Positions 2,101-34,292 of a stretch of 64,000 nucleotides of DNA are shown here, one piece after another. The stretch's first letter is position 1; each line of letters begins with the position of its first letter. Made by a program: the position numbers and the translations under genes. Under the pieces are notes generated by a model. It had not been told where the DNA came from. It saw only the letters and a program-made list of their open reading frames with translations, and searched no databases. Source of the DNA: an uncultured Clostridium sp. (GTDB lineage: Bacteria; Bacillota; Clostridia; TANB77; CAG-508). The stretch lies in contig CANDIF010000001.1 of assembly GCA_947384775.1 (NCBI GenBank), positions 121,976-185,975 on the forward strand. Direction: 5' to 3'.

Positions 2101-2751
2101 TTATTCAAATAATTCTTTACAACCTTTTAAGTAGTTTACTCCAGAAAATACTGCAGCTATTGTTGATATTACCATAAATGAAGATGCCAATATGTTAATT
2201 ACTAATTCATATCCTGTTAATCCTTCTGAAACAAATGCAAAGAATGCATGTAAATCAATAAATGTTAAGATTATTGCAATCATTTGTGTAACAGTTTTAA
2301 TTTTCCCCCAAATATTTGCTGCAATTACTTTTCCACCTTTTTCTACAGCAATCAATCTATATCCAGATACTACGAATTCTCTTGTTAATACTATGATTGG
2401 AATCCATGCGGGTATTTTGCTCATTTCTACTAACATAAGCATTGCAGATAACACTAAAATTTTATCTGCAAGAGGGTCTGCAAATTTTCCAAATGTAGTA
2501 ACTAAATTATGCTTTCTTGCTATTTTACCATCTAAATGGTCTGTATATGACGCCACTGCGAATATTGCAATTATGATTAAGTTTTGAATTGGAATATTCC
2601 ACAATGTTCCTTGTATTCCTAAAAAAGGTATTATAACCATTATCGGTACTAAGATTATTCTAAATATTGTAAGTTTATTTGGTAAGTTCATAATAAACAC
2701 TCCTATCAAATTATTTTTTACTATTATATATAATTTATTGAAATAAAACAA
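2101..2751 (-). CDS. pgsA: CDP-diacylglycerol--glycerol-3-phosphate 3-phosphatidyltransferase (CDP-alcohol phosphatidyltransferase family)
   Basis: 216 aa multi-TM protein with the D-x2-DG-x2-AR ... D-x3-D motif (DHLDGKIARK...DPLADK). Confidence 0.8.
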   Translation of the reverse strand: MFYFNKLYIIVKNNLIGVFIMNLPNKLTIFRIILVPIMVIIPFLGIQGTLWNIPIQNLIIIAIFAVASYTDHLDGKIARKHNLVTTFGKFADPLADKILVLSAMLMLVEMSKIPAWIPIIVLTREFVVSGYRLIAVEKGGKVIAANIWGKIKTVTQMIAIILTFIDLHAFFAFVSEGLTGYELVINILASSFMVISTIAAVFSGVNYLKGCKELFE

Positions 2752-2809
2752 TGGGTATTTAGAAAATTTTTGAAAAGGAAATGATTCCTTATTAGTAATA
2801 CAACAAATA

Positions 2810-2842
2810 GAAAGTATTGTAGAATAACTACAATACTTTCTA
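2810..2842. terminator. Perfect 14-bp-stem hairpin flanked by T/A runs; candidate bidirectional terminator
   Basis: agaaagtattgtag-aataa-ctacaatactttct lies just 3' of the minus-strand surface-hydrolase gene. Confidence 0.5.
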
Positions 2843-2910
2843 TAAATTTTTCTTAGTTCACTTTTAAATTAACTGTCTATTCTAGATAGTTTTTATATTA
2901 TGATATTTGT

Positions 2911-5724
2911 TTAAGGTTTTACGCTAAGGTTAGGTTGTAATGTATACCTTCCGTTGCTGCGATTTGCTGATGAAATACTATTTAATGTAGCATTATCATT
3001 GAAGTGCCACCATTCTGATTGTAGTCCTATTAATCCTGCACTAGTACAATATCTTTCTAACTTCTTTGCGTTATCATTCATAGTTGCTGCATATCTGTAT
3101 GAAGTTGCTGTTGTATATCTTGCTGCTGCAACACTTAATTCATGCATTGCTGTTGGCATCTGTACTTCTGAACTACTTGTAACTACTGTATATTTATAAT
3201 CTCCTGTTACCTTTGTTTGTGTTTCATTAACTTTTACTAGTGTAACATCTATTGCTATACCTTGTTGATGGTTTGATGTTCCTGTACTTATGAACCATCC
3301 TAGTTTCCATCCATTTACTTTAATTCCATTAGCTACTGCTGTATTATTTGCCATTAGATTAGTTAACGAACTTGCTATTGCTGTTTGTGTATCATATGGT
3401 CTAAAAGATTCATAAATTTTTAGAGAATATCCTTCTGCTAATGCTGCCTTTTGTGCCTTTGCTATTTTAACTGCCATTCCGAATAATACTGGCATATCAT
3501 ATTGGTAACAACCAAGTCTTGTATTATTGTTATACACATTATATAATTTATTTCCAGTAATATTAGGTAGATCTACACCTGATGATTTGAAAATACTTGA
3601 TGCACTGTTACTATCATAATAAACTATACTTGGAATTACATCTGGTAAATTCAATAAGACATATGGTGCATATACATATCCTGTACTTCCATCTCTGAAC
3701 ATTACTTTTAGCCAATTACTATTTTGTTCTATTATTGTAAAACTTGTTCCTGGATTTACTGTACCAAGTAATCTACTACTTGATGTGGCATTTTCACGAA
3801 TATTTAATTTTATTGAAGCCCATCCTGTTGCTCCTTTTAAAGGAAGCTCATATATTCCATTGTAAAAATCCACTGATGAGCTTGTATTATTTTTTGTTGT
3901 AAATCTTACTGGATTTGTATTATATTCTCCTGCCACTCCTCCATTAAGTGCTTTAACATTTACACAATATGCACTTCCAGGTATCAATCCTGTTATTTCT
4001 ACATATGTTCCTGTTACTACTTTTGAATATCCTTGTGTTTGATTTTCTAATCTATAATATACTTGATATTGTGTTGCACCTGATACTCTATTCCAACTTA
4101 TTTTTGCTGATTTATCTTTTATCTCTGTTACATTTAATCCTGTTACTTTAGCTATTGATGGTGTTGTTGGGTTACTTGGAGACGTTGTTGAATTTGTTTT
4201 GAAGCTTTTTTCGTCTGAATATGCTCCTGTTGTCGTTCCTATACATGCTCTTACTTTTATTCTATATGTTGTTCCAGCTTGTAATCCTGTTAATGTTGCT
4301 CTATTTCCTGTAATTTTTCCTATTGGGTTACCGTTTATAGCAATCTCATATTGTGTCGCTCCTGATACTGTATTCCAACTTATATTTGCACTATTTATTG
4401 ATGGTGTTACATTTAATCCTGTTACTTTAGCTACTGTTGGTGTTGTTGGGTTACTTGGAACTGTTGTTGCATTTGTTTTGAAACTTTTTTCATCTGAATA
4501 TGCTCCTTGTGTTGTTCCTTTATATGCTCTTACTTTTACTTTATATGTTGTTCCTGCATTTAATCCTGATATATATTTTGACGTTGTTCTAACTTTTGGT
4601 TGTGGTACATATCCTATTCCTGGTATATATATTGATACCTCATATTCTGTAGCATTTGATACTGCATTCCAACTTACTGTTACTGTATTTGATGTTGCTA
4701 CTGTTTTTACATTCATTACTTTTCCTGGTGTTACTCCTGATGAACTTGAGCCAGTTGTTGTAAATCTTATTTCTGATGAATAATCTCCAACTCCTCTGCT
4801 ATTACATGCTGCTATTTTTAAATAATATGTTACTCCTGGTTGTAAATTGTTAATTTGTAAATTTGTTGATTTAATTCTTCCTATAACTTTATAGCTTGTG
4901 TTTGCTGTTCTTAATGCTATTTCATATTCTGTTGCTCCTGATACCGCATTATATCTGAAAGTTGCTGTATTTGAATTTACTGTTACTGTTCTTAAATTTG
5001 TTACTTTTGTTGGTCTTGAACTACTTGATGAACCTCCTCCACTTGAAGAGCTTCTTGGTGTTCTAAAATTTACTTCTGCAGATTCTGCTGCATCTCCTCT
5101 ACTATTAAATGCTATTATTTTTGCTCTATAATTTAATCCATTTTCATTTCCTGTTACTGATGTAAATCCTGTTACTGTTGCTGTTGTTCCTGTTACATTT
5201 TGTACATATGTATATCCCATTCCTGGTATATATACATATACTTTATATCCTGTTGCTCCACTTGATCTATTCCATGTAAGTGTTACTGCATCGTTCGTTA
5301 CTCTTGTTGTACGTAATCCTGTTACTCTTGCTGGTTTTGAACTACTTGATGAGCTTCCACCACTTGAAGAGCTATTTGATGTTCTAAATGATACTTCTGT
5401 TGAATATTGTCCGCTACTTGAACCACTTATTGCTCTTACTTTTACTTTATATGTTTCTCCTTTATCTAATCCTGATATATATTTAGATGTTGTCTTAACT
5501 CTTGGTTGTGGTACATACCCTATTCCTGGAATATATATTGACACTTCATATTCTTTTGCATTAGTAACTTTATTCCATGTTACTGTTACTGCATTTGCCG
5601 TTGGTTTTGCTTTTACATTTGTTACTCTATTTAGTGTTACTGCTAAAACTTGTGTTCCTGCTAGCAATAAAATTATGATAACTAATATCGAAAGTCTTGA
5701 ATATATCTTTCTATTTTTCATCAT
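2911..5724 (-). CDS. Secreted multidomain cell-wall hydrolase: signal peptide, six fibronectin type III-like repeats with Ser/Gly linkers, SH3b domain, C-terminal M15 (VanY/L-Ala-D-Glu peptidase-like) Zn-peptidase
   Basis: N-terminal hydrophobic signal. Repeated ~90-aa units (YEVSIYIPGIGYVPQP...YKVKVRA). SH3b-like GWASIKL...GYVYAPYV. M15 signatures SNHQQGIAIDV (H-x6-D) and EWWHF (E-x2-H). Confidence 0.7.
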   Translation of the reverse strand: MMKNRKIYSRLSILVIIILLLAGTQVLAVTLNRVTNVKAKPTANAVTVTWNKVTNAKEYEVSIYIPGIGYVPQPRVKTTSKYISGLDKGETYKVKVRAISGSSSGQYSTEVSFRTSNSSSSGGSSSSSSKPARVTGLRTTRVTNDAVTLTWNRSSGATGYKVYVYIPGMGYTYVQNVTGTTATVTGFTSVTGNENGLNYRAKIIAFNSRGDAAESAEVNFRTPRSSSSGGGSSSSSRPTKVTNLRTVTVNSNTATFRYNAVSGATEYEIALRTANTSYKVIGRIKSTNLQINNLQPGVTYYLKIAACNSRGVGDYSSEIRFTTTGSSSSGVTPGKVMNVKTVATSNTVTVSWNAVSNATEYEVSIYIPGIGYVPQPKVRTTSKYISGLNAGTTYKVKVRAYKGTTQGAYSDEKSFKTNATTVPSNPTTPTVAKVTGLNVTPSINSANISWNTVSGATQYEIAINGNPIGKITGNRATLTGLQAGTTYRIKVRACIGTTTGAYSDEKSFKTNSTTSPSNPTTPSIAKVTGLNVTEIKDKSAKISWNRVSGATQYQVYYRLENQTQGYSKVVTGTYVEITGLIPGSAYCVNVKALNGGVAGEYNTNPVRFTTKNNTSSSVDFYNGIYELPLKGATGWASIKLNIRENATSSSRLLGTVNPGTSFTIIEQNSNWLKVMFRDGSTGYVYAPYVLLNLPDVIPSIVYYDSNSASSIFKSSGVDLPNITGNKLYNVYNNNTRLGCYQYDMPVLFGMAVKIAKAQKAALAEGYSLKIYESFRPYDTQTAIASSLTNLMANNTAVANGIKVNGWKLGWFISTGTSNHQQGIAIDVTLVKVNETQTKVTGDYKYTVVTSSSEVQMPTAMHELSVAAARYTTATSYRYAATMNDNAKKLERYCTSAGLIGLQSEWWHFNDNATLNSISSANRSNGRYTLQPNLSVKP

Positions 5725-6078
5725 AAAATCACCTCTTCTTTTCTACTTTTGTAAAATATTAATAGCGAAAAACAAAAACATATTTTTTTGTTTTTTATAT
5801 TGACATTTTTATTTTATTAGTGTAAAATATATAGTTTTACATAAATTAATTATATCATCTATGAATTTTCTTGTCAATTTTTTACAGCTTGTTTGGAAGT
5901 ATCGTAAATTTAATCTTTTTTTGCTTTACCTAAATTATTTTATTAACTTTTATTTCTTTCAAAGCTATTTCAAGTATAATTATTGTAATTGTTATTCTTC
6001 ATGTTTCAAAACTTATTTCTAGATATTGCAAAATCTTTCAAAATATAGTAAAATACTAAGTTAAAGGAGTGGATAGAT

Positions 6079-7365
6079 ATGATAGATATCAAATTAATTA
6101 GAGAAAATCCTGATTTAGTAAAAGAAAATATTAAAAAGAAATTTCAGGATCACAAACTAGAATTAGTGGATAAGGTTTTAGAATTAGATAAGAAAAACCG
6201 TGAAGTTAAATTAAAAGGAGACGAATTACGTTCTAGTAGAAACTCCTTAAGTTCTCAAATTGGTAATTTAATGAAATCTGGTAACCGTGAAGAAGCGGAA
6301 AAGATAAAAGCTGAAGTAAATGAAATAAATGCACAATTAGTAGATAATGAAAAATCTGAGGAAGAATTAGCAAATGAAATTAAAAACATTATGATGAAAA
6401 TTCCAAATATTATTGACGACTCTGTTCCTCTTGGAAAAGATGATAGTGAAAATGTTGAAGTAAAAAAATATGGAGAACCTGTTGTTCCAGATTATGAAAT
6501 TCCATACCATACAGATATAATGGAAAAACTTGCTGGCATAGATTTAGATTCTGCTCGTAGAGTTGCAGGAAATGGTTTTTATTATTTGGTTGGAGATGTT
6601 GCACGTTTACACTCTGCTGTTATTAGTTATGCAAGAGATTTTATGATAAATAAAGGATTTACTTATTGTATTCCTCCATTCATGATAAGAAGCGACGTTG
6701 TAACAGGTGTTATGAGCTTTGAAGAAATGGATGCAATGATGTATAAAATTGAAGGCGAAGATTTATATTTAATTGGGACAAGTGAACACTCTATGATTGG
6801 TAAATTTAAAGACCAAATATTAAAAAAAGCTGATTTACCATACACTATGACTTCTTATTCTCCATGCTTTAGAAAAGAAAAAGGTGCTCATGGTGTTGAA
6901 GAACGTGGAGTTTATAGAATACATCAATTTGAAAAACAAGAAATGATAGTAGTATGTGAACCTGAAGAAAGTTACGAATGGTATGATAAAATGTGGAGCT
7001 ATACAGTTGAACTATTTAGAAGTTTAGATATACCTGTTCGTACTCTTGAATGTTGTTCTGGAGACTTAGCAGATTTAAAAGCAAAATCTTGCGATGTTGA
7101 AGCATGGTCTCCTCGTCAAAAGAAATACTTTGAAGTTGGTAGTTGCTCTAATTTAACAGATGCTCAAAGTAGACGTTTAGGAATACGTGTTAAAGGTGAA
7201 AAAGGAAATTATTTTGCACATACATTAAATAATACAGTTGTTGCTCCTCCTCGTATGTTGATAGCATTCTTAGAGAATAATTATAATCCAGATGGAAGTA
7301 TTAATATTCCTGAAGTGTTACAACCTTATATGGGTGGAATAAGTGTGCTTCGCGCTAGTGAATAG
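6079..7365 (+). CDS. serS: Seryl-tRNA synthetase
   Basis: 428 aa; N-terminal coiled-coil arm plus class II aaRS core. Confidence 0.95.
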   Translation: MIDIKLIRENPDLVKENIKKKFQDHKLELVDKVLELDKKNREVKLKGDELRSSRNSLSSQIGNLMKSGNREEAEKIKAEVNEINAQLVDNEKSEEELANEIKNIMMKIPNIIDDSVPLGKDDSENVEVKKYGEPVVPDYEIPYHTDIMEKLAGIDLDSARRVAGNGFYYLVGDVARLHSAVISYARDFMINKGFTYCIPPFMIRSDVVTGVMSFEEMDAMMYKIEGEDLYLIGTSEHSMIGKFKDQILKKADLPYTMTSYSPCFRKEKGAHGVEERGVYRIHQFEKQEMIVVCEPEESYEWYDKMWSYTVELFRSLDIPVRTLECCSGDLADLKAKSCDVEAWSPRQKKYFEVGSCSNLTDAQSRRLGIRVKGEKGNYFAHTLNNTVVAPPRMLIAFLENNYNPDGSINIPEVLQPYMGGISVLRASE

Positions 7366-25507: not shown

Positions 25508-25939
25508 CTATTTAAGTTTATCAAATAGATTGTGGCACACCGTAAATGCTGCCACAAGAGAAAGAAGTGCATTTGCCACCCAAAATTGCCAAATTTGTAA
25601 TGCTGTGGGTAGCACAAACAGCATTAGTGAAAAAATGATAGTGAACGGAACGATAAAGCTGCACGCTTTTTCTGTGATTTTTTTCCACTTTTTCTGCCAG
25701 GTCACGCCAAAGAGCCCAAAATATATCCAGGCAGTCAGTGGCGCAATTGCCAGTTGAATGGTCCACATAGGAACAAACGCGTTGAAGTCGAATGGTAGTT
25801 CATGGCTTTCCAGCCAGACAAAGGTCACCAGTGTCAGCTGGAACAGGTATGCTGTTGCAATACCCGCTAAGATTGCCCATAGTTCATTGCCTTTCCGTTT
25901 CATGTGCTTTTCATCCTTTCTTGTAGCCAAGATTAACAT
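25508..25939 (-). CDS. Small 4-TM membrane protein, higher-GC islet gene. Likely real start is Met13 (25903), which has an RBS
   Basis: 143 aa (131 from the second Met), ~45% GC. Confidence 0.5.
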   Translation of the reverse strand: MLILATRKDEKHMKRKGNELWAILAGIATAYLFQLTLVTFVWLESHELPFDFNAFVPMWTIQLAIAPLTAWIYFGLFGVTWQKKWKKITEKACSFIVPFTIIFSLMLFVLPTALQIWQFWVANALLSLVAAFTVCHNLFDKLK

Positions 25940-26051
25940 AGGGCGAATTCCCTAATGACTGTGATTGTATCATATTTATGTTGATTTGTAAATTAGTATT
26001 TTTTAGATGTCTCTTTGAATGGAATTATTCGACACTAGTTTTATTTTTTTA

Positions 26052-26116
26052 CTGACATTCTGCCCCGTCCCTTCTGACACCTTCTGATGTCACTTGGGAC
26101 GGGGTCATTTGACATT
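26052..26116. repeat. REP-like repeat cluster A (right-end copy abutting the RAYT stop codon)
   Basis: tgacattctgccccgtccc + 2 x ccttctga iteron + inverted unit tgtcacttgggacggggtcatttgacatt. GC-rich 9-bp palindrome arms CCCCGTCCC/GGGACGGGG. Confidence 0.75.
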
Positions 26117-26789
26117 AATTATTATACAGCTTTCTTATTTTTTCTCTATTCATTTGTAATAATTGAGAAATTTTCCTTAGTGATAATCCATTATCTCTTT
26201 TTAATATCAACAGTAATTCTTTTAATTTTACTTTACTCTTTTTTAATTCGTTTATTTCTAAATTATTTTCTATCAAAAACCTTGCTATTAACTCTTGACA
26301 AATATTTTCATTGTCAACATCTAAAAATATATAACCGTCTTCTAGAACTTTATTTTCATCTTTGCAATCTGAATACGGATATTCTTTTGCTTGATTGCAT
26401 ATTCCTGCTTTTACAGGATTATTATGAATATAATTAATGCAATTGCATAATTATTCTTCACTATATATGCCTTCTGATTTATACCTATCTCTAAATACAT
26501 ATCCTACTCTTTTATGCTTATTATTATAGTATTGAGCATATTGAGTGTTAATTTTGTGCATATATTTACTAAGATTTTCTATGTTATCAGTTTGTAACAA
26601 CATGTGTGTGTGATTATTCATAATACAGTATGCTAATATATCTACATTTTCTTTCTTCGCTACTCTTTTCATCAATTCTATGTAATATTCTATATCTTCT
26701 TTTTTATCAAATATGTAACTCTTATTTATTCCTTGAGTTATAATATGAAAATATGATGTCTGTATATAACTTCTTGGAAATCTTGGCAT
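26115..26789 (-). pseudogene. REP-associated tyrosine transposase (IS200/IS605 Y1 family, RAYT-like) with C-terminal DnaA-domain-IV-like HTH; interrupted by an in-frame TAA at 26451-26453
   Basis: N-terminal 112 aa: PRFPRSYIQTSYFHI, HuH motif NHTHML, catalytic Tyr in VFRDRYKSE. In the same frame after the TAA the translation continues ...INYIHNNPVKAGICNQAKEYPYSDC... (conserved IS200 TnpA C-terminus) plus an HTH (LSLRKISQLLQMNREKIRK), ending at 26115. Confidence 0.7.
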
Positions 26790-26886
26790 TTCAGACTCAA
26801 CTCCTCTATCATCAAATTTTTTGTATTTATTCTACATTATTTTTCACAATAAATTTGTCGAAATTTGTCTTTAATCCGTTTATTTT

Positions 26887-27012
26887 TTTATGTCATTCTG
26901 CCCCGTCCCTTCTGACACCTTCTGACATTTTTTTATGTCATTCTGCCCCGTCCCTTCTGACACCTTCTGATGCCTTCTGACCCCCTTTTGACCTTTTGAC
27001 ACTTTTGACATC
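26887..27012. repeat. REP-like repeat cluster B (two tandem direct units upstream of the RAYT gene)
   Basis: 2 x tttatgtcattctgccccgtcccttctgacaccttctga, then decaying iterons ccttctga/ccccttttga/ccttttgac/acttttgaca. Confidence 0.75.
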
Positions 27013-27520
27013 ATTTAATCAAGTCTTCATTAATACACTCTAATATCCTTTCATATATACTATCAAAATCAATATTCATTAGTCTTTCATTTAACTTTAG
27101 ATACAATTGATTTTTTTCTTTTATGTGCATATTCTTTCTGTTATATACTCCTTGTAATTGTTCTATAACATAATTTAAATTGCGATTACCAATTATGTCA
27201 TTATATTTTTTTACTATATTTATGTTTTTAATTATATTTTCTTCAAGATTTTTAAATAGTTTTATATATATTTCTTCTTTTTCTTTAATGGAATAATTAT
27301 AATATTGCCTTATCAAAATATCTTCAATATTATTATTTTTATAAAATTTCACATGTATATAAATATTATAAAAACTATATATCAGATTTTCCCATTTTCT
27401 AAGTAAATTTACTCCACTTACATGTTCTTTGCTTGTTACCGTATTAACAATTTCATCTTTTATGCTTATTAATTTTCCCCAACTGTCATATGTATATGAT
27501 GTCACTTGGGACGGGGTCAT
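27011..27520 (-). CDS. Orphan RHS-derived fragment: N-terminus homologous to the RHS core region (SYTYDSWGKLISIKDE), remainder unrelated with no DPxGL
   Basis: 169 aa. Codons 1-7 (MTPSQVT) are encoded by the REP inverted unit. Residues 8-23 are ~90% nt-identical to 28861-28896 in the main RHS gene. Confidence 0.45.
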   Translation of the reverse strand: MTPSQVTSYTYDSWGKLISIKDEIVNTVTSKEHVSGVNLLRKWENLIYSFYNIYIHVKFYKNNNIEDILIRQYYNYSIKEKEEIYIKLFKNLEENIIKNINIVKKYNDIIGNRNLNYVIEQLQGVYNRKNMHIKEKNQLYLKLNERLMNIDFDSIYERILECINEDLIK

Positions 27521-27647
27521 TTGACATTAAATTCATTTTTCTCTATGTCATTCTGCCCCGTCCCTACTGACAAATTCATTTTTCTCTATGTCATTATGCC
27601 CCGTCCCTTCTGACACCTTCTGACACCTTCTGACACCTTTTGACATC
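27497..27647. repeat. REP-like repeat cluster C (one inverted unit + two direct units + four 10-bp iterons)
   Basis: tgtcacttgggacggggtcatttgacatta; 2 x aattcatttttctctatgtcatt[c/a]tgccccgtccc; ccttctgaca x3 + ccttttgacatc. Confidence 0.75.
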
Positions 27648-28038
27648 AATAGATAATATATTTGATTTTTTCACATATAATATATGTTATTTCATTATCT
27701 ATATTAGTTTCATTCCATTCCATGCTGTCTGCCCAAAAAATTAAATTATTATTCATATACATTTTTGCCCCATCTATATTATTAAAATATTTACTTTTAT
27801 CGTATATATGTATATTCATTTGTTTTATTCTTTCAAAATGTATTTCAATGGTACCTCCTAATTGACTTTTTAAAATCATCTTAATTTCACTTTCTTCGTC
27901 TTGTCTCATATATTTTCTTTCATCAACATACATACCTGTTTTACAAAAGAATTCTATTACGCAACTATCATGAAAATTATAAAATTTCTTCATTATTTCA
28001 TCAATATCATTTTGCGAAGTTACATTTTTCCAATCCAT
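27646..28038 (-). CDS. Putative cognate immunity protein for the RHS C-terminal toxin
   Basis: 130 aa, soluble, immediately 3' (68-nt gap) of the toxin-encoding end of the RHS gene, no recognisable family. Call is positional. Confidence 0.45.
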   Translation of the reverse strand: MDWKNVTSQNDIDEIMKKFYNFHDSCVIEFFCKTGMYVDERKYMRQDEESEIKMILKSQLGGTIEIHFERIKQMNIHIYDKSKYFNNIDGAKMYMNNNLIFWADSMEWNETNIDNEITYIICEKIKYIIY

Positions 28039-28106
28039 ATTTCTAAATTTTATATAATGAAATTATATTTCACTATATTCTCCTTTCTTTTATATACTTT
28101 TTTTAT

Positions 28107-31100
28107 TTATGGTGTTGCAGCATTAGCTGGAATAGTCCACCATAAAGCTGGAAATAGTGACGGTATCATTCTTATTCCTCTATATAAAACATATCCACCC
28201 ACACCTATTCCAATTCCTTTTCCTAAATTTCTAAAATTATATGCAGGTCCTCTTTTGCACTTGTCTCCATCCCATTCCCAATCATGGTTATGTGGAAATT
28301 TATGAGTTCCATCATCAGTATGGTTATAATCAGTATCTCGTGTTGCTTTTCCATCAGGTCCATAATATCTTCTCTTTTTTATCGTTCCATCTGGATTTAA
28401 TAAATCTTCTGTGGAATTAGGTTTTCCCTTTGTTGATAAGTCCTCAGCGAATCTAATGTTTTTTCTTGTATATGCACTATTATTAGAAATTGCAGATATT
28501 TTTATAGCATTTTTTGCCATATTTGTTGCAATTATAGGTGCTGATAATTTTTGGATTTCTTTACTTATTAAATTTTTAATATTTTTTATAATTGATAAAA
28601 TCGAAACACTTCCTAATGGATCATAATAATTTATAGGATTATTTGAACAGTATGCAAACAAGTTATGTCCTATTATTTCATTCCCACCATTAAACGTCCC
28701 ATCCGCATTCAAGAATCTTCCCCATTCTGGGTTATAGTATCTTGAATTTAGGTAATATAGTCCTGTTTCTGTATCGTATCTATAACTCCTATATCTGTAT
28801 GGGTTTGCTATTCCCACATGATTTGGGTCTGTTATCTCTTTTCCTTCTTCATCTTTTATGCTTACCATTTTTCCCCAGCTGTCATATGTATATGATACTA
28901 TGTGATTTTTATTATTGTCAAGTATTCCTATTATATCTCCTTGTAAATTTTTTAAATATAAATAAATAGCTCCATTATACCTTAGTCCCATAATGTCTCC
29001 ATTGTTGTCGTAGAAATAGTATATTACACTATTACTGTTATCTTTTTTCTCATATATTACTTTTGTTCCTTCTAAAAAGTATTCTGTTGTTACTCCATTT
29101 ACTGTTTTTTCTGTCCTTATTCCTTCATCATTATACTTATAACTTATGTTTAATCCTGTATTTTCATTTGTTATACTTTTTAATTCTCTTCCATTCTGCC
29201 AAGTGTATGTATTTCCATTATATGATAATGGATTTCCAATTGTATCATATGTTATTGTTTGTCCATTGTAACTTGTTAATTGATCTTTCCAATTTGTATT
29301 TCCATATGTATAATTTATCGTTTTTGTTGCTGTTCCTAATTCTCCTGTTGTATATGGATATTCTGTTTTATTTGTAATATTTCCTCCTAAATCATATTCA
29401 TATGTGATAGTTTTACTTAAAGTTTCATTATTTTCTCTTTTTAATTGGTTTAAGCTGTCATAATAATATGTTGCACTTTGTCTACCTCTTACATTCTTTA
29501 TATTACCTAATTCATCATAATTATATCCTATGAAAAATGAATCTCCCTCAATACTTGATACTCTTGATGTTGTTCTATTACTATCTACATTTTCATAGTC
29601 ATACCTTATAATATAAGATTTATTGGCTCCACTAATAAATTTTCTACTTAATCTCGATAAATTGTCATAATCAAATTCCATTGAAATACTATTCCCTGAA
29701 TTTGAGTCTCCAGAATATGTTGAAACAGATGTAATTCTGTTTTGATTATCATATCCATAATTTTCTCTACTTATATTGCCATTGAATACATATTCTGAAT
29801 AATTTAAATTGTTGTTTTTATCATATTTGTAAGCTCTCTTAAATCCATATAAAGCATTATAAACGTTTGTTATTCTTCCTGATAAATCATATGTATAGTA
29901 TTCCTTTATTCCTTCTGGTGTTTCTATGTATGCTAAATTTGATTGTGCATCGTACTTATATTTATATGTTCCTTGCTCTTTTGTTTGTGTTGTCATTATA
30001 TTAAATCTATCATATGTATATGATATCGTATCATCATTTCCATATATCACACTATTTAAATTTCCATAGTTTTCATCATAATTATTTGTTATCAATGTTT
30101 GATTAGCTATTTTTACTTGTTTTCTATTTCCATATTCATCATATGTAAAATAATAGTTAAATCTATTATGAGCTATTGTATTTATTCTATCATTTTCATA
30201 TGTATACCTATTTTGATATGTTTTGTTTCCTACTGTTTTGCTTACTATGCTTATTCTTCCTAATTCATCATATGTGTAATTTGTTTCTGTTCCTTTGGCA
30301 TCTGTTACTTTATCTAAATTTCCATTTGTTTGGTTGTATTCATATGTTGTTTCTTTTCCTGTTTCGTCTTTTATTTTTGTTAGATAATTTCCATTTTCTG
30401 TATATTCTGCATTTGTTTCTATATATTTACTATTTGTATTGTTTGTTATCTTTGAAGTTGTTGCTTGTCCGTATTGGTTATATGTAAAGTTATAATTTAC
30501 TTCGGTGCTACTTATCGCTTTGGTTAGTCTATGTTTATATGTTGTATCATATTGATATTCAAATGTTCCACCCCTTGGATTTGTGTATTTTATTAAATTA
30601 TCATTTCCATCGTACTGAAATGTATTGTTCTGCTTTGCCAAATCTTGTGTTTTTATAATATTTCCATTACTATCATATTGATAGCTTTGCCCAAAGTGGT
30701 CTTTATATAATGCTACATTTGTTATATATGCTACATTTAGATTTTCGTAAAAACAGAAATATACTTGTATCTTTCTATAGTCATGTTCAGCTATAAATTC
30801 ATTTTGTACAAACTGCCATTGATCACTTGGATTTACTCTTACTGTTCTCCATTGTTGTTCACCGTTGTTTCCTATTATGCATACTGTAAAATCTGTAACG
30901 GTAGTATTATTTTTATTTCTTACTCCTCCTGCATATATCCATGCAGATATGCTAAATACATCTCCTTGTTTTCCTCCTGTTATTACATCTTGACGTATAT
31001 ATTTTTTTACAGTAGCTTCTCCTTCTAATTTGTAAAAATTACTTCCAGTTCCTACTGGTAGTGCTACCCAGTCTATATTTGGATTTGTATTATATGTTAT

Positions 31101-34100
31101 CCAACTCTTTGGATTACTTCCAGTATAATCAAATGCTGAGTTTTCTACCATATTATATTGGTTTTCAATAAATCCTTCTTCTACTTGTATATCGTCATAA
31201 TATATTGTGCCTGTATTTCCGAAAAATCCAATTACAACAGTCAAACTACTTGTTGCATCTTCTGGATAATATAAACTTAATGAGTATTTGTTCCATTCTG
31301 AATTTTTTTCAATAATATCTTGCTCTTCCATAACTCTATTTCCTGAAGCATCTAGATAATACAATTGTATATATCCCTCTCCAAGACTAGTCTTTTCAAG
31401 TTTTAATTTAAGAGATAAAGTATATGTTTTTCCCTTTTCTGCATTACAGTAATGATACGCTGCTGGTTGAACACTTTCTGTAAAGATACTTGATATTTTC
31501 ATACTTCTACTTCCAGTATAGCTATCTTCTGTACTGTATTCTATTGAACCAGGATTATTCCCCCAATTTCTAAATTCCCATTCTCCATCATATTCAAAAC
31601 TTCCATTAAATACTAAATTATTTACTGATTTTGTTAATGATCCATCCAATGTTAATCTATTTTTAGCTCCGCCACTTTCTCCATAATTGTACACTTTTCC
31701 ATATGCTTGACTAAGGTCAATTCCATCTTTTCCGAAATCTGCTACACTTATTGCTTGTCCCCAATCATTAAATGTTACATTATTACTAAAACCTTTATTA
31801 TCTGTAAATGTTGTTAAGTTGTCGTTATATGCTATGGTTAATCTATTTCCTAATTCTAAATTACTTGCACGTTCTTCTATTGTTTTTACTCTGTTAGTTT
31901 TTTCTGGATAATATTCAAAATTCAAATGTTTCCCATCTATATTTAATAGCATAACTAATAAATTATTTTGGTATACTAGCATTGATTCTCTGTTATCTAA
32001 ATATTTAATTTCTCCTAATGTACCATCATTGTAGCATACAAATTGCATTGATTTTCCATCTGGACCTGTTAATTTGTTCAAATAGTTTCCCGCATATTCA
32101 AAGGTTATTTCTTGTCCTGCTCCATCTGTTACTTTAGATATAACAAAGTCATTTGCCTCTGTTTCTGAAAATGTTATTATTATTTTATTTCCATTGTTAT
32201 CTTCTATTTCTTTTAAGTGCCATAAATATCTTCCTGCAACCGTTCTTCTTTCGAACCTTATTACATTATCTCCTTTATCTTTCATGCTAAACACTGCTGT
32301 TGCTGCATCTAATGTTAATTCTAAATTTAATCCATCTTCGTCTTTATATATATTTCCTTCTTTGGTAAAATAATGTCTTGTTCCATCTTCATCTATATAT
32401 TCTGCATATTCTGTACCACCTATTGTTACCAATTCTATTGTTTGTGATAAATTAAGTCTCATTCCATTTCCATATCTGGAACCTATATCTTTATCGTTTG
32501 TATTATATACATGTGTTATTGTTACTGGAAACCTTTCTCCTGGTGTTGATATATCGTTATGTATCCATACTAAATTTCCATTATAGTCATTTGTATATAC
32601 TGTTCCTGCTCTTCCCAAATCTTGAGTATGGTAACTTAAATAATCTTCTAATCCTGTTTGATTTCTATATATAATTTGTACTACTGGTCTTCCTTCATAC
32701 CAAGTTACATTTGTATCTGATGAAATAAAATATGCATCATTTCCTGAAACATTATTTGCTTCTGAATGTTCTTTTATCATTACACCATAGTTATTTCCTG
32801 TTGTGTACCACTCTTTAGCTGCTGTTGTTATATTAAATGTATATTGTTTACATTGGTTGTTATAATCGAATTGATATAGAATAAAATCTTCTGCTCTTGA
32901 ATTGTAATTTGCATTTGTATTACTCCATGTTGCTGTATTTTCATTCCAATCTGCAGTTATTTTATGTGCATCTAATTGTATTTGTCTAGTATTAGGTGTC
33001 CATTCACTTGTTTTTGGATATGTAAATATATTTAAATATGCTCCTATTACTTGATCTCCAGCTTTGAGTTCTGGAAGATTAAATTTTACTAAACTTCTTG
33101 TTGGGACTCCACTATTGTTTCCTGCTCTTATTATGTGTGCATTTCCTTTTGGGTCACTTCCTTGGCTTGAATATATAAATGTATCCTTAATATCATCATA
33201 ATATCTTGATGTAATTATGCTTGGATCTATTGTTATTGGATATATTCTTTCTGCTGCTTCTAGCCATTTTTTATCTGGTATTAATGTTATTATGTATTTA
33301 TCTGCTTGCTTTTCTAATTTTATATCAATATCTGAACTAAACTCTAATTTGTTGTCATACATAAATGGTGCTTCTATTGTAAATTTTACATTTTCTTCTG
33401 TCTTATCGTATACTATTATGTCTTTTGTTTCTAATAGTTTCATTTCAAGTGTTCCAACATCATATACAAATTTCAATTCATTATTTATTGATTCTTTATT
33501 TTGTAATATAATGTTTTCTTTTACATGTTCTGGTTCTGCTGAATATTCTATGCTTATATTACTTAATATTTCATTATATTCTATAGATGTTGTTGGTATT
33601 TGTGTTTTTACTTCTTTTGCTCGTAAACCTTTAACTTCTCTTTTCTCTAAGTTTTTATTATTTACATTTACTTTTGAAGATTGCGAATTTACTAATCCCC
33701 ATTTTATTGTATATCCTTCACTTTCCATACTTCCTAATCTGTATCCATTTGTTTTATTAGTAAAATATATTTGTGCATTTCCTGTTTTATTTTTGTAAAT
33801 TTTTGTTTCCTTTTTCTGTTCTTCTATTATTGCTTTATTTAATTTTTCTTCTATTTGATTGTTTTGCATCATTTCTATTTTAGTATTTTCTTCTGTTATT
33901 TTTAGTTTTTCTTCTGTATCAATTACTTCCTCTAATGTATTGTCTACATCTAGGAATTTTCCATCTTTCTCATAATGTACATTACTTGGAAATACTGATG
34001 CCACTACACTTCCATCTGACCTTAGGAAATGTTTTTCTGTATATGTTCTTTCTTCTTCCAGTTCTCCGATTATAACTGGTTCTGCTTTTTCCTGTTCTTT

Positions 34101-34292
34101 TGCTTGCTTTTCTAAATGTTCATCTAAACTTTTATGCATGTCTACTTTTGCTTCCATTTTATTGATTACAGCGTTTATATTTACTGCAATTGCAATATTT
34201 GGCACAAATTGAAAGACCATCACAAACACAAGTATTGTTGCAATGATCTTTTTTAATTTCTTTGGGCTTAAATGTTTTTGCATATTCATCAC
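28107..34292 (-). CDS. RHS/YD-repeat polymorphic toxin (WapA-like wall-associated protein) with Sec signal peptide and variable C-terminal toxin domain
   Basis: 2061 aa. N-terminal signal/TM (IIATILVFVMVFQFV). Dozens of YD repeats (YxYDxxGRL/ YTYD...G.). RHS repeat-associated core ending in the hallmark ...NPINYYDPLG (DPxGL). Then a 167-aa CT. Confidence 0.85.
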   Translation of the reverse strand: MMNMQKHLSPKKLKKIIATILVFVMVFQFVPNIAIAVNINAVINKMEAKVDMHKSLDEHLEKQAKEQEKAEPVIIGELEEERTYTEKHFLRSDGSVVASVFPSNVHYEKDGKFLDVDNTLEEVIDTEEKLKITEENTKIEMMQNNQIEEKLNKAIIEEQKKETKIYKNKTGNAQIYFTNKTNGYRLGSMESEGYTIKWGLVNSQSSKVNVNNKNLEKREVKGLRAKEVKTQIPTTSIEYNEILSNISIEYSAEPEHVKENIILQNKESINNELKFVYDVGTLEMKLLETKDIIVYDKTEENVKFTIEAPFMYDNKLEFSSDIDIKLEKQADKYIITLIPDKKWLEAAERIYPITIDPSIITSRYYDDIKDTFIYSSQGSDPKGNAHIIRAGNNSGVPTRSLVKFNLPELKAGDQVIGAYLNIFTYPKTSEWTPNTRQIQLDAHKITADWNENTATWSNTNANYNSRAEDFILYQFDYNNQCKQYTFNITTAAKEWYTTGNNYGVMIKEHSEANNVSGNDAYFISSDTNVTWYEGRPVVQIIYRNQTGLEDYLSYHTQDLGRAGTVYTNDYNGNLVWIHNDISTPGERFPVTITHVYNTNDKDIGSRYGNGMRLNLSQTIELVTIGGTEYAEYIDEDGTRHYFTKEGNIYKDEDGLNLELTLDAATAVFSMKDKGDNVIRFERRTVAGRYLWHLKEIEDNNGNKIIITFSETEANDFVISKVTDGAGQEITFEYAGNYLNKLTGPDGKSMQFVCYNDGTLGEIKYLDNRESMLVYQNNLLVMLLNIDGKHLNFEYYPEKTNRVKTIEERASNLELGNRLTIAYNDNLTTFTDNKGFSNNVTFNDWGQAISVADFGKDGIDLSQAYGKVYNYGESGGAKNRLTLDGSLTKSVNNLVFNGSFEYDGEWEFRNWGNNPGSIEYSTEDSYTGSRSMKISSIFTESVQPAAYHYCNAEKGKTYTLSLKLKLEKTSLGEGYIQLYYLDASGNRVMEEQDIIEKNSEWNKYSLSLYYPEDATSSLTVVIGFFGNTGTIYYDDIQVEEGFIENQYNMVENSAFDYTGSNPKSWITYNTNPNIDWVALPVGTGSNFYKLEGEATVKKYIRQDVITGGKQGDVFSISAWIYAGGVRNKNNTTVTDFTVCIIGNNGEQQWRTVRVNPSDQWQFVQNEFIAEHDYRKIQVYFCFYENLNVAYITNVALYKDHFGQSYQYDSNGNIIKTQDLAKQNNTFQYDGNDNLIKYTNPRGGTFEYQYDTTYKHRLTKAISSTEVNYNFTYNQYGQATTSKITNNTNSKYIETNAEYTENGNYLTKIKDETGKETTYEYNQTNGNLDKVTDAKGTETNYTYDELGRISIVSKTVGNKTYQNRYTYENDRINTIAHNRFNYYFTYDEYGNRKQVKIANQTLITNNYDENYGNLNSVIYGNDDTISYTYDRFNIMTTQTKEQGTYKYKYDAQSNLAYIETPEGIKEYYTYDLSGRITNVYNALYGFKRAYKYDKNNNLNYSEYVFNGNISRENYGYDNQNRITSVSTYSGDSNSGNSISMEFDYDNLSRLSRKFISGANKSYIIRYDYENVDSNRTTSRVSSIEGDSFFIGYNYDELGNIKNVRGRQSATYYYDSLNQLKRENNETLSKTITYEYDLGGNITNKTEYPYTTGELGTATKTINYTYGNTNWKDQLTSYNGQTITYDTIGNPLSYNGNTYTWQNGRELKSITNENTGLNISYKYNDEGIRTEKTVNGVTTEYFLEGTKVIYEKKDNSNSVIYYFYDNNGDIMGLRYNGAIYLYLKNLQGDIIGILDNNKNHIVSYTYDSWGKMVSIKDEEGKEITDPNHVGIANPYRYRSYRYDTETGLYYLNSRYYNPEWGRFLNADGTFNGGNEIIGHNLFAYCSNNPINYYDPLGSVSILSIIKNIKNLISKEIQKLSAPIIATNMAKNAIKISAISNNSAYTRKNIRFAEDLSTKGKPNSTEDLLNPDGTIKKRRYYGPDGKATRDTDYNHTDDGTHKFPHNHDWEWDGDKCKRGPAYNFRNLGKGIGIGVGGYVLYRGIRMIPSLFPALWWTIPANAATP
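28110..28610 (-). other. C-terminal toxin (CT) domain of the RHS protein, after the DPLG motif; family unassigned
   Basis: 167 aa after YYDPLG. His/Asp-rich motif DYNHTDDGTHKFPHNHDWEWDGD and a C-terminal glycine-zipper LGKGIGIGVGGYVLYRG. GC ~36%, higher than the repeat body. Confidence 0.5.

Follow-up and report, generated by a model that had tools for sequence, protein, structure and literature searches.

We analysed a 64-kb stretch of the genome of an uncultured Clostridium sp. (assembly GCA_947384775.1, contig CANDIF010000001.1, positions 121 976 to 185 975; hereafter the window), in which three clusters of short repeats surround a gene for a Y1 (HUH) tyrosine transposase. It is likely that these clusters are the ends and the internally deleted copies of a small mobile element of the REPtron/TIRtron type, that is, of a kind related to repetitive extragenic palindromic (REP) elements and their REP-associated tyrosine transposases (RAYTs). 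The element would encode a 224-aa protein that combines an HUH/Y1 single-strand DNA nuclease-ligase core with a C-terminal helix-turn-helix (HTH)-like domain. Two 27-nt units in inverted orientation would bracket the gene, their outer box often being repeated outward at a 10-nt phase (the iterons), and the gene-less copies (left end, ∼17 nt, right end) would be non-autonomous doublets comparable to REPINs or miniature inverted-repeat transposable elements (MITEs). In this species and a sister species, doublets appear to have accumulated between immunity cassettes downstream of an Rhs toxin gene.

Repeat units and clusters in the window

The sequence CCCCGTCCC occurs seven times in the window (0.02 copies expected from shuffles), and all copies are confined to 26053-26114 (cluster A), 26891-26962 (cluster B) and 27500-27615 (cluster C); the three clusters of GC-rich repeats around a Y1 gene reported by the initial annotation of this DNA are real. 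Each copy is embedded in a 27-nt unit, TGTCA-N5-CCCCGTCCC-N3-TGACA, in which the asymmetric core CCCCGTCCC is separated by 5 nt from an inner TGTCA box and by 3 nt from an outer TGACA box. A search of the window for the full pattern with up to three mismatches returned the same seven sites and no others. Five units, on the plus strand, read TGTCATTCTGCCCCGTCCCTTCTGACA; the two units on the minus strand read TGTCAAATGACCCCGTCCCAAGTGACA, and both lie inside one identical 34-nt stretch (the 34 nt at 27497-27530 are the same as those around the copy at 26085-26118). The unit had been put at ∼45 bp, but what is conserved is only 27–29 nt, and 43–45 nt is the period of local tandem duplications: Tandem Repeats Finder gives a 45-nt repeat in two copies at 26882-26970, with 100% matches, and a 43-nt repeat in two copies at 27529-27615.

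Homologous loci from other genomes (see below) have, on the gene strand, outer TGTCA repeats, a GGGACGGGG unit, ∼100–130 bp, the transposase gene, a CCCCGTCCC unit and outer TGACA repeats. As these loci all share this one layout, the two unit types of the window are left-end (LE) and right-end (RE) forms; in the homologous genes, too, a unit is found at the position that matches the RE unit at 26088..26114. The features of the region are (window coordinates, strand, description):

26053..26079, plus strand: LE-type unit TGACATTCTGCCCCGTCCCTTCTGACA, a pattern match with one mismatch in the inner box
26072..26087, plus strand: outer iteron TTCTGACACC and a partial copy TTCTGA
26088..26114, minus strand: RE-type unit TGTCAAATGACCCCGTCCCAAGTGACA, an exact match, abutting the stop codon of the transposase gene
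26115..26789, minus strand: 224-codon gene for a Y1 (HUH) tyrosine transposase (REP/TIRYT type), located between clusters A and B
26790..26890, minus strand: leader, from the left end to the start codon, containing GACAAATTTCGACAAATTT at 26851-26869
26891-26917 and 26936-26962, plus strand: two LE-type units in a perfect 45-nt tandem duplication upstream of the transposase gene
26955..27010, plus strand: outer iteron array TTCTGACACC, TTCTGATGCC, TTCTGACCCC, followed by decayed copies of TTTTGAC(A)
27500..27526, minus strand: RE-type unit of a gene-less doublet, an exact match
27546-27572 and 27589-27615, plus strand: two LE-type units in a 43-nt tandem duplication
27606..27647, plus strand: outer iteron array, TTCTGACACC three times, then TTTTGACATC, ending at the stop codon of an immunity gene

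Cluster A is an RE abutting an inverted LE remnant, and cluster B is a duplicated LE. Cluster C, previously read as a solo copy, is a gene-less left-left-right doublet with one RE-type and two LE-type units, in which the LE unit at 27546-27572 pairs with the RE unit at 27500..27526 over a loop of ∼17 nt. The LE-type unit at 26053..26079, which stands outer end to outer end with the RE of the transposase element, was probably left behind by a second element next to it. When folded as single-stranded DNA, clusters A and C give a three-segment hairpin built on a 9-bp GC core (z = −5.5 to −6.8, with none of 200 shuffles folding equally well), as had been proposed for the repeats in general, but cluster B, with its two direct units, gives no such fold.

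The iteron TTCTGACACC is present in eight copies in the window when one mismatch is allowed (1.7 expected), and seven of the eight are inside the clusters. Tandem Repeats Finder recovers 10-nt arrays of CCTTCTGACA, in two to four copies, at 26908-26927, 26952-26993 and 27606-27645, and a decayed 8–9-nt array at 26984-27010. The tandem iterons with a decayed end that had been noted behind each unit are thus present, but their number is one to about six per unit instead of two to five. In the array at 27606..27647 the copy number varies among strains. A scan of 25800-27900 against Rfam (E up to 1) gave no match, so the repeats are not a known RNA family; a promoter and terminator consensus scan of the units in the window gave no signal above shuffles, so that outward −35 elements or terminators formed from the TTGACA-like boxes are unsupported there.

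The transposase gene and its protein

The transposase open reading frame (ORF) matches the Pfam family Y1_Tnp (E = 1.8e-13). It contains a single in-frame TAA at codon 113 (26451-26453), a position at which homologues have Gln or His. The stop precedes the catalytic Tyr120 and thereby removes the nucleophile, so this transposase copy is dead. In conspecific strains the gene is intact, and public assemblies encode an intact protein of 224 aa (P0001) that is 100% identical to the window sequence with Gln113 restored. The restored protein scores 89.6 bits against the NCBIfam model NF047646 (‘REP-associated tyrosine transposase’; cutoff 80), which is above the cutoff, and 24.4 bits against the IS200 model NF033573 (cutoff 55), which is below it. 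The gene had been called an IS200-like RAYT gene; the REP-type model and the inverted flanking repeats agree with a RAYT, and the gene is inactivated by the TAA.

The AlphaFold model of the restored protein (pLDDT 83.7) has as its closest solved fold the Escherichia coli TnpAREP with a REP hairpin (4ER8; E = 4e-7, TM 0.64, target-normalised), and the next structural matches are the TnpA proteins of ISDra2 and IS608. An HxH motif is found at residues 60-62, and Y120, in the segment INYIHNNPVK, aligns in sequence with the catalytic Y115 of 4ER8 (for TnpAREP, the catalytic mutant is Y115F; PMC8266576); the HxH motif and Y120 are both invariant across 32 homologues. A tyrosine in RDRYKSE, upstream of the stop, was considered as the catalytic residue and ruled out, as the alignment with 4ER8 puts the catalytic Tyr downstream of the stop, at Y120.

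Five helices make up the C-terminal domain (residues ∼161–223) in the predicted structure, with a pLDDT of 87 when residues 155-224 are modelled alone. Its best structural neighbours, LsrR/DeoR, sigma region 4 and the DnaA DNA-binding domain (3PVP; TM 0.65, query-normalised), are all helix-turn-helix DNA-binding domains, though none of these matches is significant, and the modelled domain appears to be HTH-like. Upstream of the gene, the motif GACAAATTTCGACAAAT(TT) at 26851-26869 is conserved in four homologous loci (L049, L091, L092 and L062) despite a protein identity of 55–82%. It is presumably the promoter of the transposase gene or an (autoregulatory) operator.

The repeat family in related gut Clostridia

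A scan of one genome per species for the 19 specified bases of the unit collected at least 120 stretches (L001-L120) from 43 assemblies. Among the matches listed, 41 of the 43 unit-bearing assemblies are metagenome-assembled genomes (MAGs) of uncultured low-GC gut Clostridia, and the other two are high-GC chance matches. The units are arranged as at least 50 inverted doublets and at least 84 solos, some of the latter with a degenerate partner. In the unit logo, boxes and core are fixed and spacers differ among species, with the information content falling right outside gTGTCA...TGACAc. Units are mostly extragenic: among the matches listed, 17.6% are inside ORFs of at least 100 aa, as compared with an ORF coverage of the loci of 80%, and the flanking genes are in tandem in 80 cases, convergent in 24 and divergent in 19.

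With the window protein as query, tblastn found eight homologous gene copies (55–82% identity) in seven of the 120 listed loci. The leader of ∼100–130 bp in these loci holds a conserved AAATTTCGACAAAT motif, and the CCCCGTCCC unit follows at most ∼20 nt past the stop codon, except in L078, where the distance is greater. Spacer identity is 0.84 for units of one genome and 0.52 across genomes, and the units beside each gene share spacer variants with the dispersed units of the same MAG. One transposase copy was seen per MAG (with partial sampling of the MAGs), except for two copies in L091. These two (2440-3108 and 5834-6454) are 3.3 kb apart, each with its own flanking units; one of them has a divergent and truncated C-terminus and is an exception to the single-copy pattern. 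The possibility raised initially that the motif occurs only at this place fails at the level of the family, which is dispersed and mostly extragenic in related genomes, each gene being flanked by the unit variant of its own genome.

The iterons are not confined to the window either. At least two phased TGACA boxes, mostly at a 10-nt phase, are found on the outer side of 32 out of 184 units and on the inner side of three. A distant cultured relative, Acetoanaerobium noterae (NZ_CP154629.1; L137, 420384-423800), has a 273-aa Y1+HTH gene with 39% identity, which occurs once in the 2.63-Mb replicon and is bracketed by perfect 25-nt inverted repeats that share a CCGTCCC core; its outer iterons are TAATGATTTG, unlike the sequence in the window, and its right end has 34 matching sites in the replicon. 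The 32 outer arrays and the outer repeats of A. noterae together make the iterons a conserved architectural feature of the family and not a peculiarity of the window. The initial remark that the iterons are unusual was right. The A. noterae replicon is annotated as a plasmid and carries nearly no annotated features.

The MAG JAAVYV01 carries at least 16 near-identical doublets that form a 101-nt hairpin (−53 kcal/mol); the loci include L004, L007, L013, L015, L035, L055, L089, L095, L107 and L108. Their outermost stems vary by compensatory changes (gggctg/cagccc, ggtctg/cagacc and ggactg/cagtcc), with runs of A and T beside them. These doublets may have arisen by insertion into hairpins of terminators, or there may be active maintenance of the palindrome.

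True solos between co-oriented genes in L001-L120 have the C-rich core antisense in 12 cases and sense in three; this small sample hints at strand-specific insertion or at selection. In two MAGs from the Hadza gut a doublet is directly upstream of the ribosome-binding site of dnaK (L003, 2866-2943, and L034, 7368-7442), where the long hairpin could have an effect on dnaK expression.

A metagenome scan with a species-specific left-end 19-mer, in a collection without this species, returned chance high-GC matches and one related low-GC contig. There were no matches in viral contigs, so the element is not phage-borne, and no close protein homologue was found in plasmids (best identity 39.7%).

Rhs context and conspecific strains

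The repeat clusters are found in an array of orphan cassettes downstream of an Rhs toxin gene. The neighbouring features in the window are:

27011..27520, minus strand: fusion ORF of 169 aa with its start codon within the RE unit (MTPSQVT...)
27646..34292, minus strand: the Rhs toxin and immunity-like genes that form the context of the repeat clusters
27646-28038, minus strand: immunity-like gene, 130 aa
28107-34292, minus strand: Rhs/YD-repeat toxin gene, 2061 aa, with a C-terminal Tox-WTIP domain

The window is 99.99% identical to the conspecific locus L121 over 11.3 kb, except for a 3.39-kb deletion (L121 5939-9333) in the Rhs orphan array. This deletion, specific to the strain of the window, lost two doublets and created the fusion ORF at 27011-27520, in which a fragment of the Rhs core (SYTYDSWGKLISIKDE) is continued by the C-terminal portion of an immunity-like gene (DUF4085). 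A deletion mediated by doublets was ruled out, as the junction (27452-27457) is in coding sequence, with ∼6 nt of overlap between the alignment blocks. The ATG in the RE unit (AAATGACCCC) opens frames into the downstream DNA, giving predicted MTPSQVT... fusions to orphan toxin fragments (27500-27520; L126 830-1294).

P0001 is encoded on contigs from gut metagenomes (mouse gut is named in one record), and these contigs have the same gene order as the window: Rhs toxin, immunity gene, orphan array, transposase, membrane ORF and HD-domain gene. Conspecific strains have three or four more doublets in the Rhs orphan array, all oriented like the transposase element, and the doublets within one strain are 92–98% identical. 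The strains differ exactly at unit ends: there are three or four GGTGTCAGAA copies and one or two CCAAGTGACA copies, a right-end/spacer/right-end hybrid (L124), a partial right-end duplication and a 27-nt deletion adjoining a right end, and in L126 the right end of the transposase is joined 110 nt deeper into an orphan toxin gene. The loci L121 and L122 are collinear (99.3%) as far as the last right-end base (...AAGTGACA) of doublet D3, and collinearity resumes at the left-end iterons; between the collinear blocks they hold non-homologous cassettes.

In the sister species (CANTAQ01), with 82% identity in the transposase and 73% in Rhs, seven or eight immunity-like cassettes of one ORF each come after the Rhs gene. 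Each gap between cassettes has either a doublet or a degenerate unit, their orientation being the same throughout, and the array ends with left end, transposase and right end. Homologous cassettes are ordered differently in the two species. Homologues of the immunity gene at 27646-28038 are found in the sister species as a distal orphan cassette. No further unit-bearing locus among those examined adjoins an Rhs gene, so the association with Rhs is lineage-specific.

Comparison with known systems

RAYT-like genes that have terminal inverted repeats in place of REPs at their flanks were described by Di Nocera et al. (2013, PMC3733652) as ‘TIRtrons’, encoding ‘TIRYTs’; in some of them the repeats form moderately abundant families. 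Quentin et al. (2018, PMC6006769) equate them with subclass 2.1 of TnpAY1, whose defining trait is a DnaA_C/HTH-like domain at the C-terminus and which is reported to be the second-largest TnpAY1 subclass (PMC6006769). No REP-like sequences were found near subclass 2.1 genes, and the role of the domain was left open (Quentin et al., PMC6006769). Neither PMC3733652 nor PMC6006769 reports REP or TIR families in Clostridia, and our full-text literature searches found no description of such a repeat family.

By architecture, the system best fits a TIRtron/TIRYT and not a classical GTAG REP, its assignment to subclass 2.1 being by features only. Like the TIRtrons, it has a RAYT-like Y1 protein that is longer than TnpAREP, with a putative C-terminal (DnaA_C/HTH_23-like) helix-turn-helix domain; a gene between terminal inverted repeats and not REP stem-loops; and repeats elsewhere as moderately abundant dimers, clusters and singletons, with the gene apparently in single or near-single copy. 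Unlike them, it has phased 10-nt outer iterons, which are not described for TIRtrons, its hosts are low-GC gut Clostridia, and its doublets bound Rhs immunity cassettes.

With the REP/BIME–RAYT and REPIN–RAYT systems of Proteobacteria it shares a match to the REP transposase model, the TnpAREP fold, inverted flanking units, extragenic placement, genome-specific variants and compensatory changes that preserve hairpins, and with REPINs also inverted doublets with a short spacer. It differs in the copy numbers seen, which are in the tens (at least 16 loci in one MAG, 34 in A. noterae) and not in the hundreds, in the predicted extra DNA-binding domain of the protein and in the local distribution of the copies seen in this species. 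IS200/IS605 elements (IS608, ISDra2) have in common with it the HUH/Y1 catalytic fold and precise termini with varied flanks, and the same single-strand cut-and-rejoin chemistry beside DNA hairpins, at a short specific sequence, would be expected. However, the IS200 model does not fit the protein, the ends here are inverted repeats, there is no tnpB and non-autonomous copies prevail.

Integron attC arrays resemble the orphan arrays in their single-ORF cassettes, separated by imperfect palindromes that can fold as single strands, in one orientation and with a recombinase-type gene at one end; the cassette content of strains also changes exactly at the palindromes. But there is no IntI tyrosine recombinase, attI or Pc promoter here, the sole recombinase-type gene is the distal HUH/Y1 gene, and other species carry these repeats dispersed in ordinary intergenic DNA. 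The resemblance to integrons is limited to architecture.

Possible mechanism and alternative explanations

From homology and natural breakpoints, we infer the following steps. The left and right units would pair on single-stranded DNA into the three-segment stem; the Y1 domain would cut and rejoin at the foot of this stem, directly after the outer TGACA, through a 5′-phosphotyrosine link on Tyr120; and the helix-turn-helix domain would dock on the TGTCA/TGACA boxes. Joining in the wrong register among the phased boxes would then make and remove iterons, tandem units and hybrid junctions. As the enzyme of the window is dead (Q113 to stop), the arrays there are relics unless another copy acts in trans.

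Several observations weigh against a TIRtron-type mobile element, or against parts of the picture. The transposase gene is a pseudogene in this strain. The visible copies of this species are all within ∼5 kb, inside the Rhs orphan array: no unit is found in the 64-kb window beyond a 1.6-kb region, nor beyond the Rhs–transposase interval in conspecific loci of 18–21 kb. The unit, TGTCA-N5-CCCCGTCCC-N3-TGACA, has no exact match to GGGGWSAS, the published motif that many TIRYT inverted repeats have in common; by inspection, the best partial fits of the core GGGACGGGG to it are 7/8 (GGGGTCAT or GGGGACGG). The REP/BIME-plus-RAYT arrangement named in the initial annotation was right in kind, but the units carry neither GTAG nor CGTC as a tag, and one unit alone does not form a GC-rich stem-loop, as it has only 5–6-bp terminal boxes around an asymmetric C-rich core; the arrangement matches a TIRtron/TIRYT. 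(The CGTC within the core was considered as a CGTC-tagged REP in the sense of Di Nocera et al. and judged a coincidence, being without an 8–9-bp stem, a 4–5-nt loop and a terminal position of the tag.) In statistical terms the assignment of the helix-turn-helix is weak (Pfam HTH_23 has E = 0.16, below threshold, and no Foldseek hit has E ≤ 1e-3). The strain differences at unit ends could equally be explained by RecA-dependent recombination or replication slippage between repeats. Finally, where cleavage takes place, what the helix-turn-helix domain does and how the iterons arose are points that we infer.

The local distribution of copies could also be read as that of an ordinary autonomous insertion sequence (IS) of the IS200/IS605 type, with its two ends and the remnants of earlier insertions and no REP-like non-autonomous family: in the window and in the conspecific 18–21-kb loci all copies are at most ∼5 kb from the gene, and the junction variation among strains points to local activity. 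We think this quite unlikely, as the protein passes the REP transposase model and falls below the cutoff of the IS200 model (24.4 versus 55), the ends of IS200/IS605 elements are dissimilar subterminal hairpins and not inverted repeats, and the window has no tnpB-like ORF. Related MAGs, moreover, hold far more gene-less doublets than genes, and for a single gene there are 34 repeat sites in A. noterae. The units might instead be host regulatory or structural sites (terminators, mRNA stabilisers or operator arrays) to which the transposase is linked incidentally, and their extragenic placement, often 10–70 nt past stop codons, their strong hairpins, the TTTT that follows the core in other species and the doublets just upstream of dnaK are all in keeping with this. 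It is nevertheless highly improbable, given the empty Rfam scan, the lack of terminator- or promoter-like signals above shuffles for the units in the window, the flanking of the transposase by the unit variant of its own genome in each locus examined, and the orientation of flanking genes, which is without strong bias among the matches listed (80 tandem, 24 convergent, 19 divergent). The units may have been co-opted for host functions.

Two further explanations concern the cassettes. The doublets, as conserved sequences of 75–130 bp between Rhs immunity cassettes, may mainly be passive substrates of RecA recombination by which cassettes are exchanged, lost and gained among strains, the transposase now being without a role. 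This would account for the collinearity of L121 and L122 outside the right end of D3 and the left-end iterons, with non-homologous cassettes inside, and it agrees with the 92–98% identity of doublets within a strain and with the sister species, where each gap has a doublet or degenerate unit and cassettes are reordered. It does not explain why there are doublets in every gap, why hybrid junctions end exactly at TGACA without flanking homology (L124, L126 and the adjacent 27-nt deletion) or why the family is dispersed in other genomes, and as the whole explanation it is unlikely; RecA exchange is compatible with the mobile element as a secondary consequence. Alternatively, the doublets and the Y1–HTH enzyme may form an integron-like cassette system for polymorphic-toxin immunity genes, with foldable doublets as attC-like boundaries, in which immunity or orphan-toxin cassettes downstream of the Rhs gene would be captured, excised or exchanged by HUH single-strand cleavage and joining at the TGACA termini. 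The doublets in the gaps of the sister species, the reordering of cassettes and the unit-bounded cassette replacement are consistent with such a system and do not support it sufficiently, and we regard it as rather improbable.

Significance

The TIRtron/TIRYT-like system described here is one of a known kind that was previously undescribed in these gut Clostridia; in this species and its sister species it is located at the boundaries of toxin-immunity cassettes. For the subclass 2.1 ‘TIRYT’ Y1 proteins with a DnaA-like tail no DNA substrate has been defined. The family supplies a sharply defined unit (two boxes and an asymmetric core, with phased repeats on the outer side) that is kept across at least 41 Clostridia genomes, as well as an intact enzyme sequence (P0001), and natural strain variants locate breakpoints at the outer TGACA; with these three, binding and cleavage experiments can be designed directly. 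Two features are worth following: that outer iterons are conserved, and that doublets stand at the borders of Rhs immunity cassettes. With this family, repeat biology of the REP/RAYT type is extended to gut Clostridia with low GC and small genomes, and repeats that mark the boundaries of Rhs immunity cassettes may bear on the turnover of toxin-immunity arrays.

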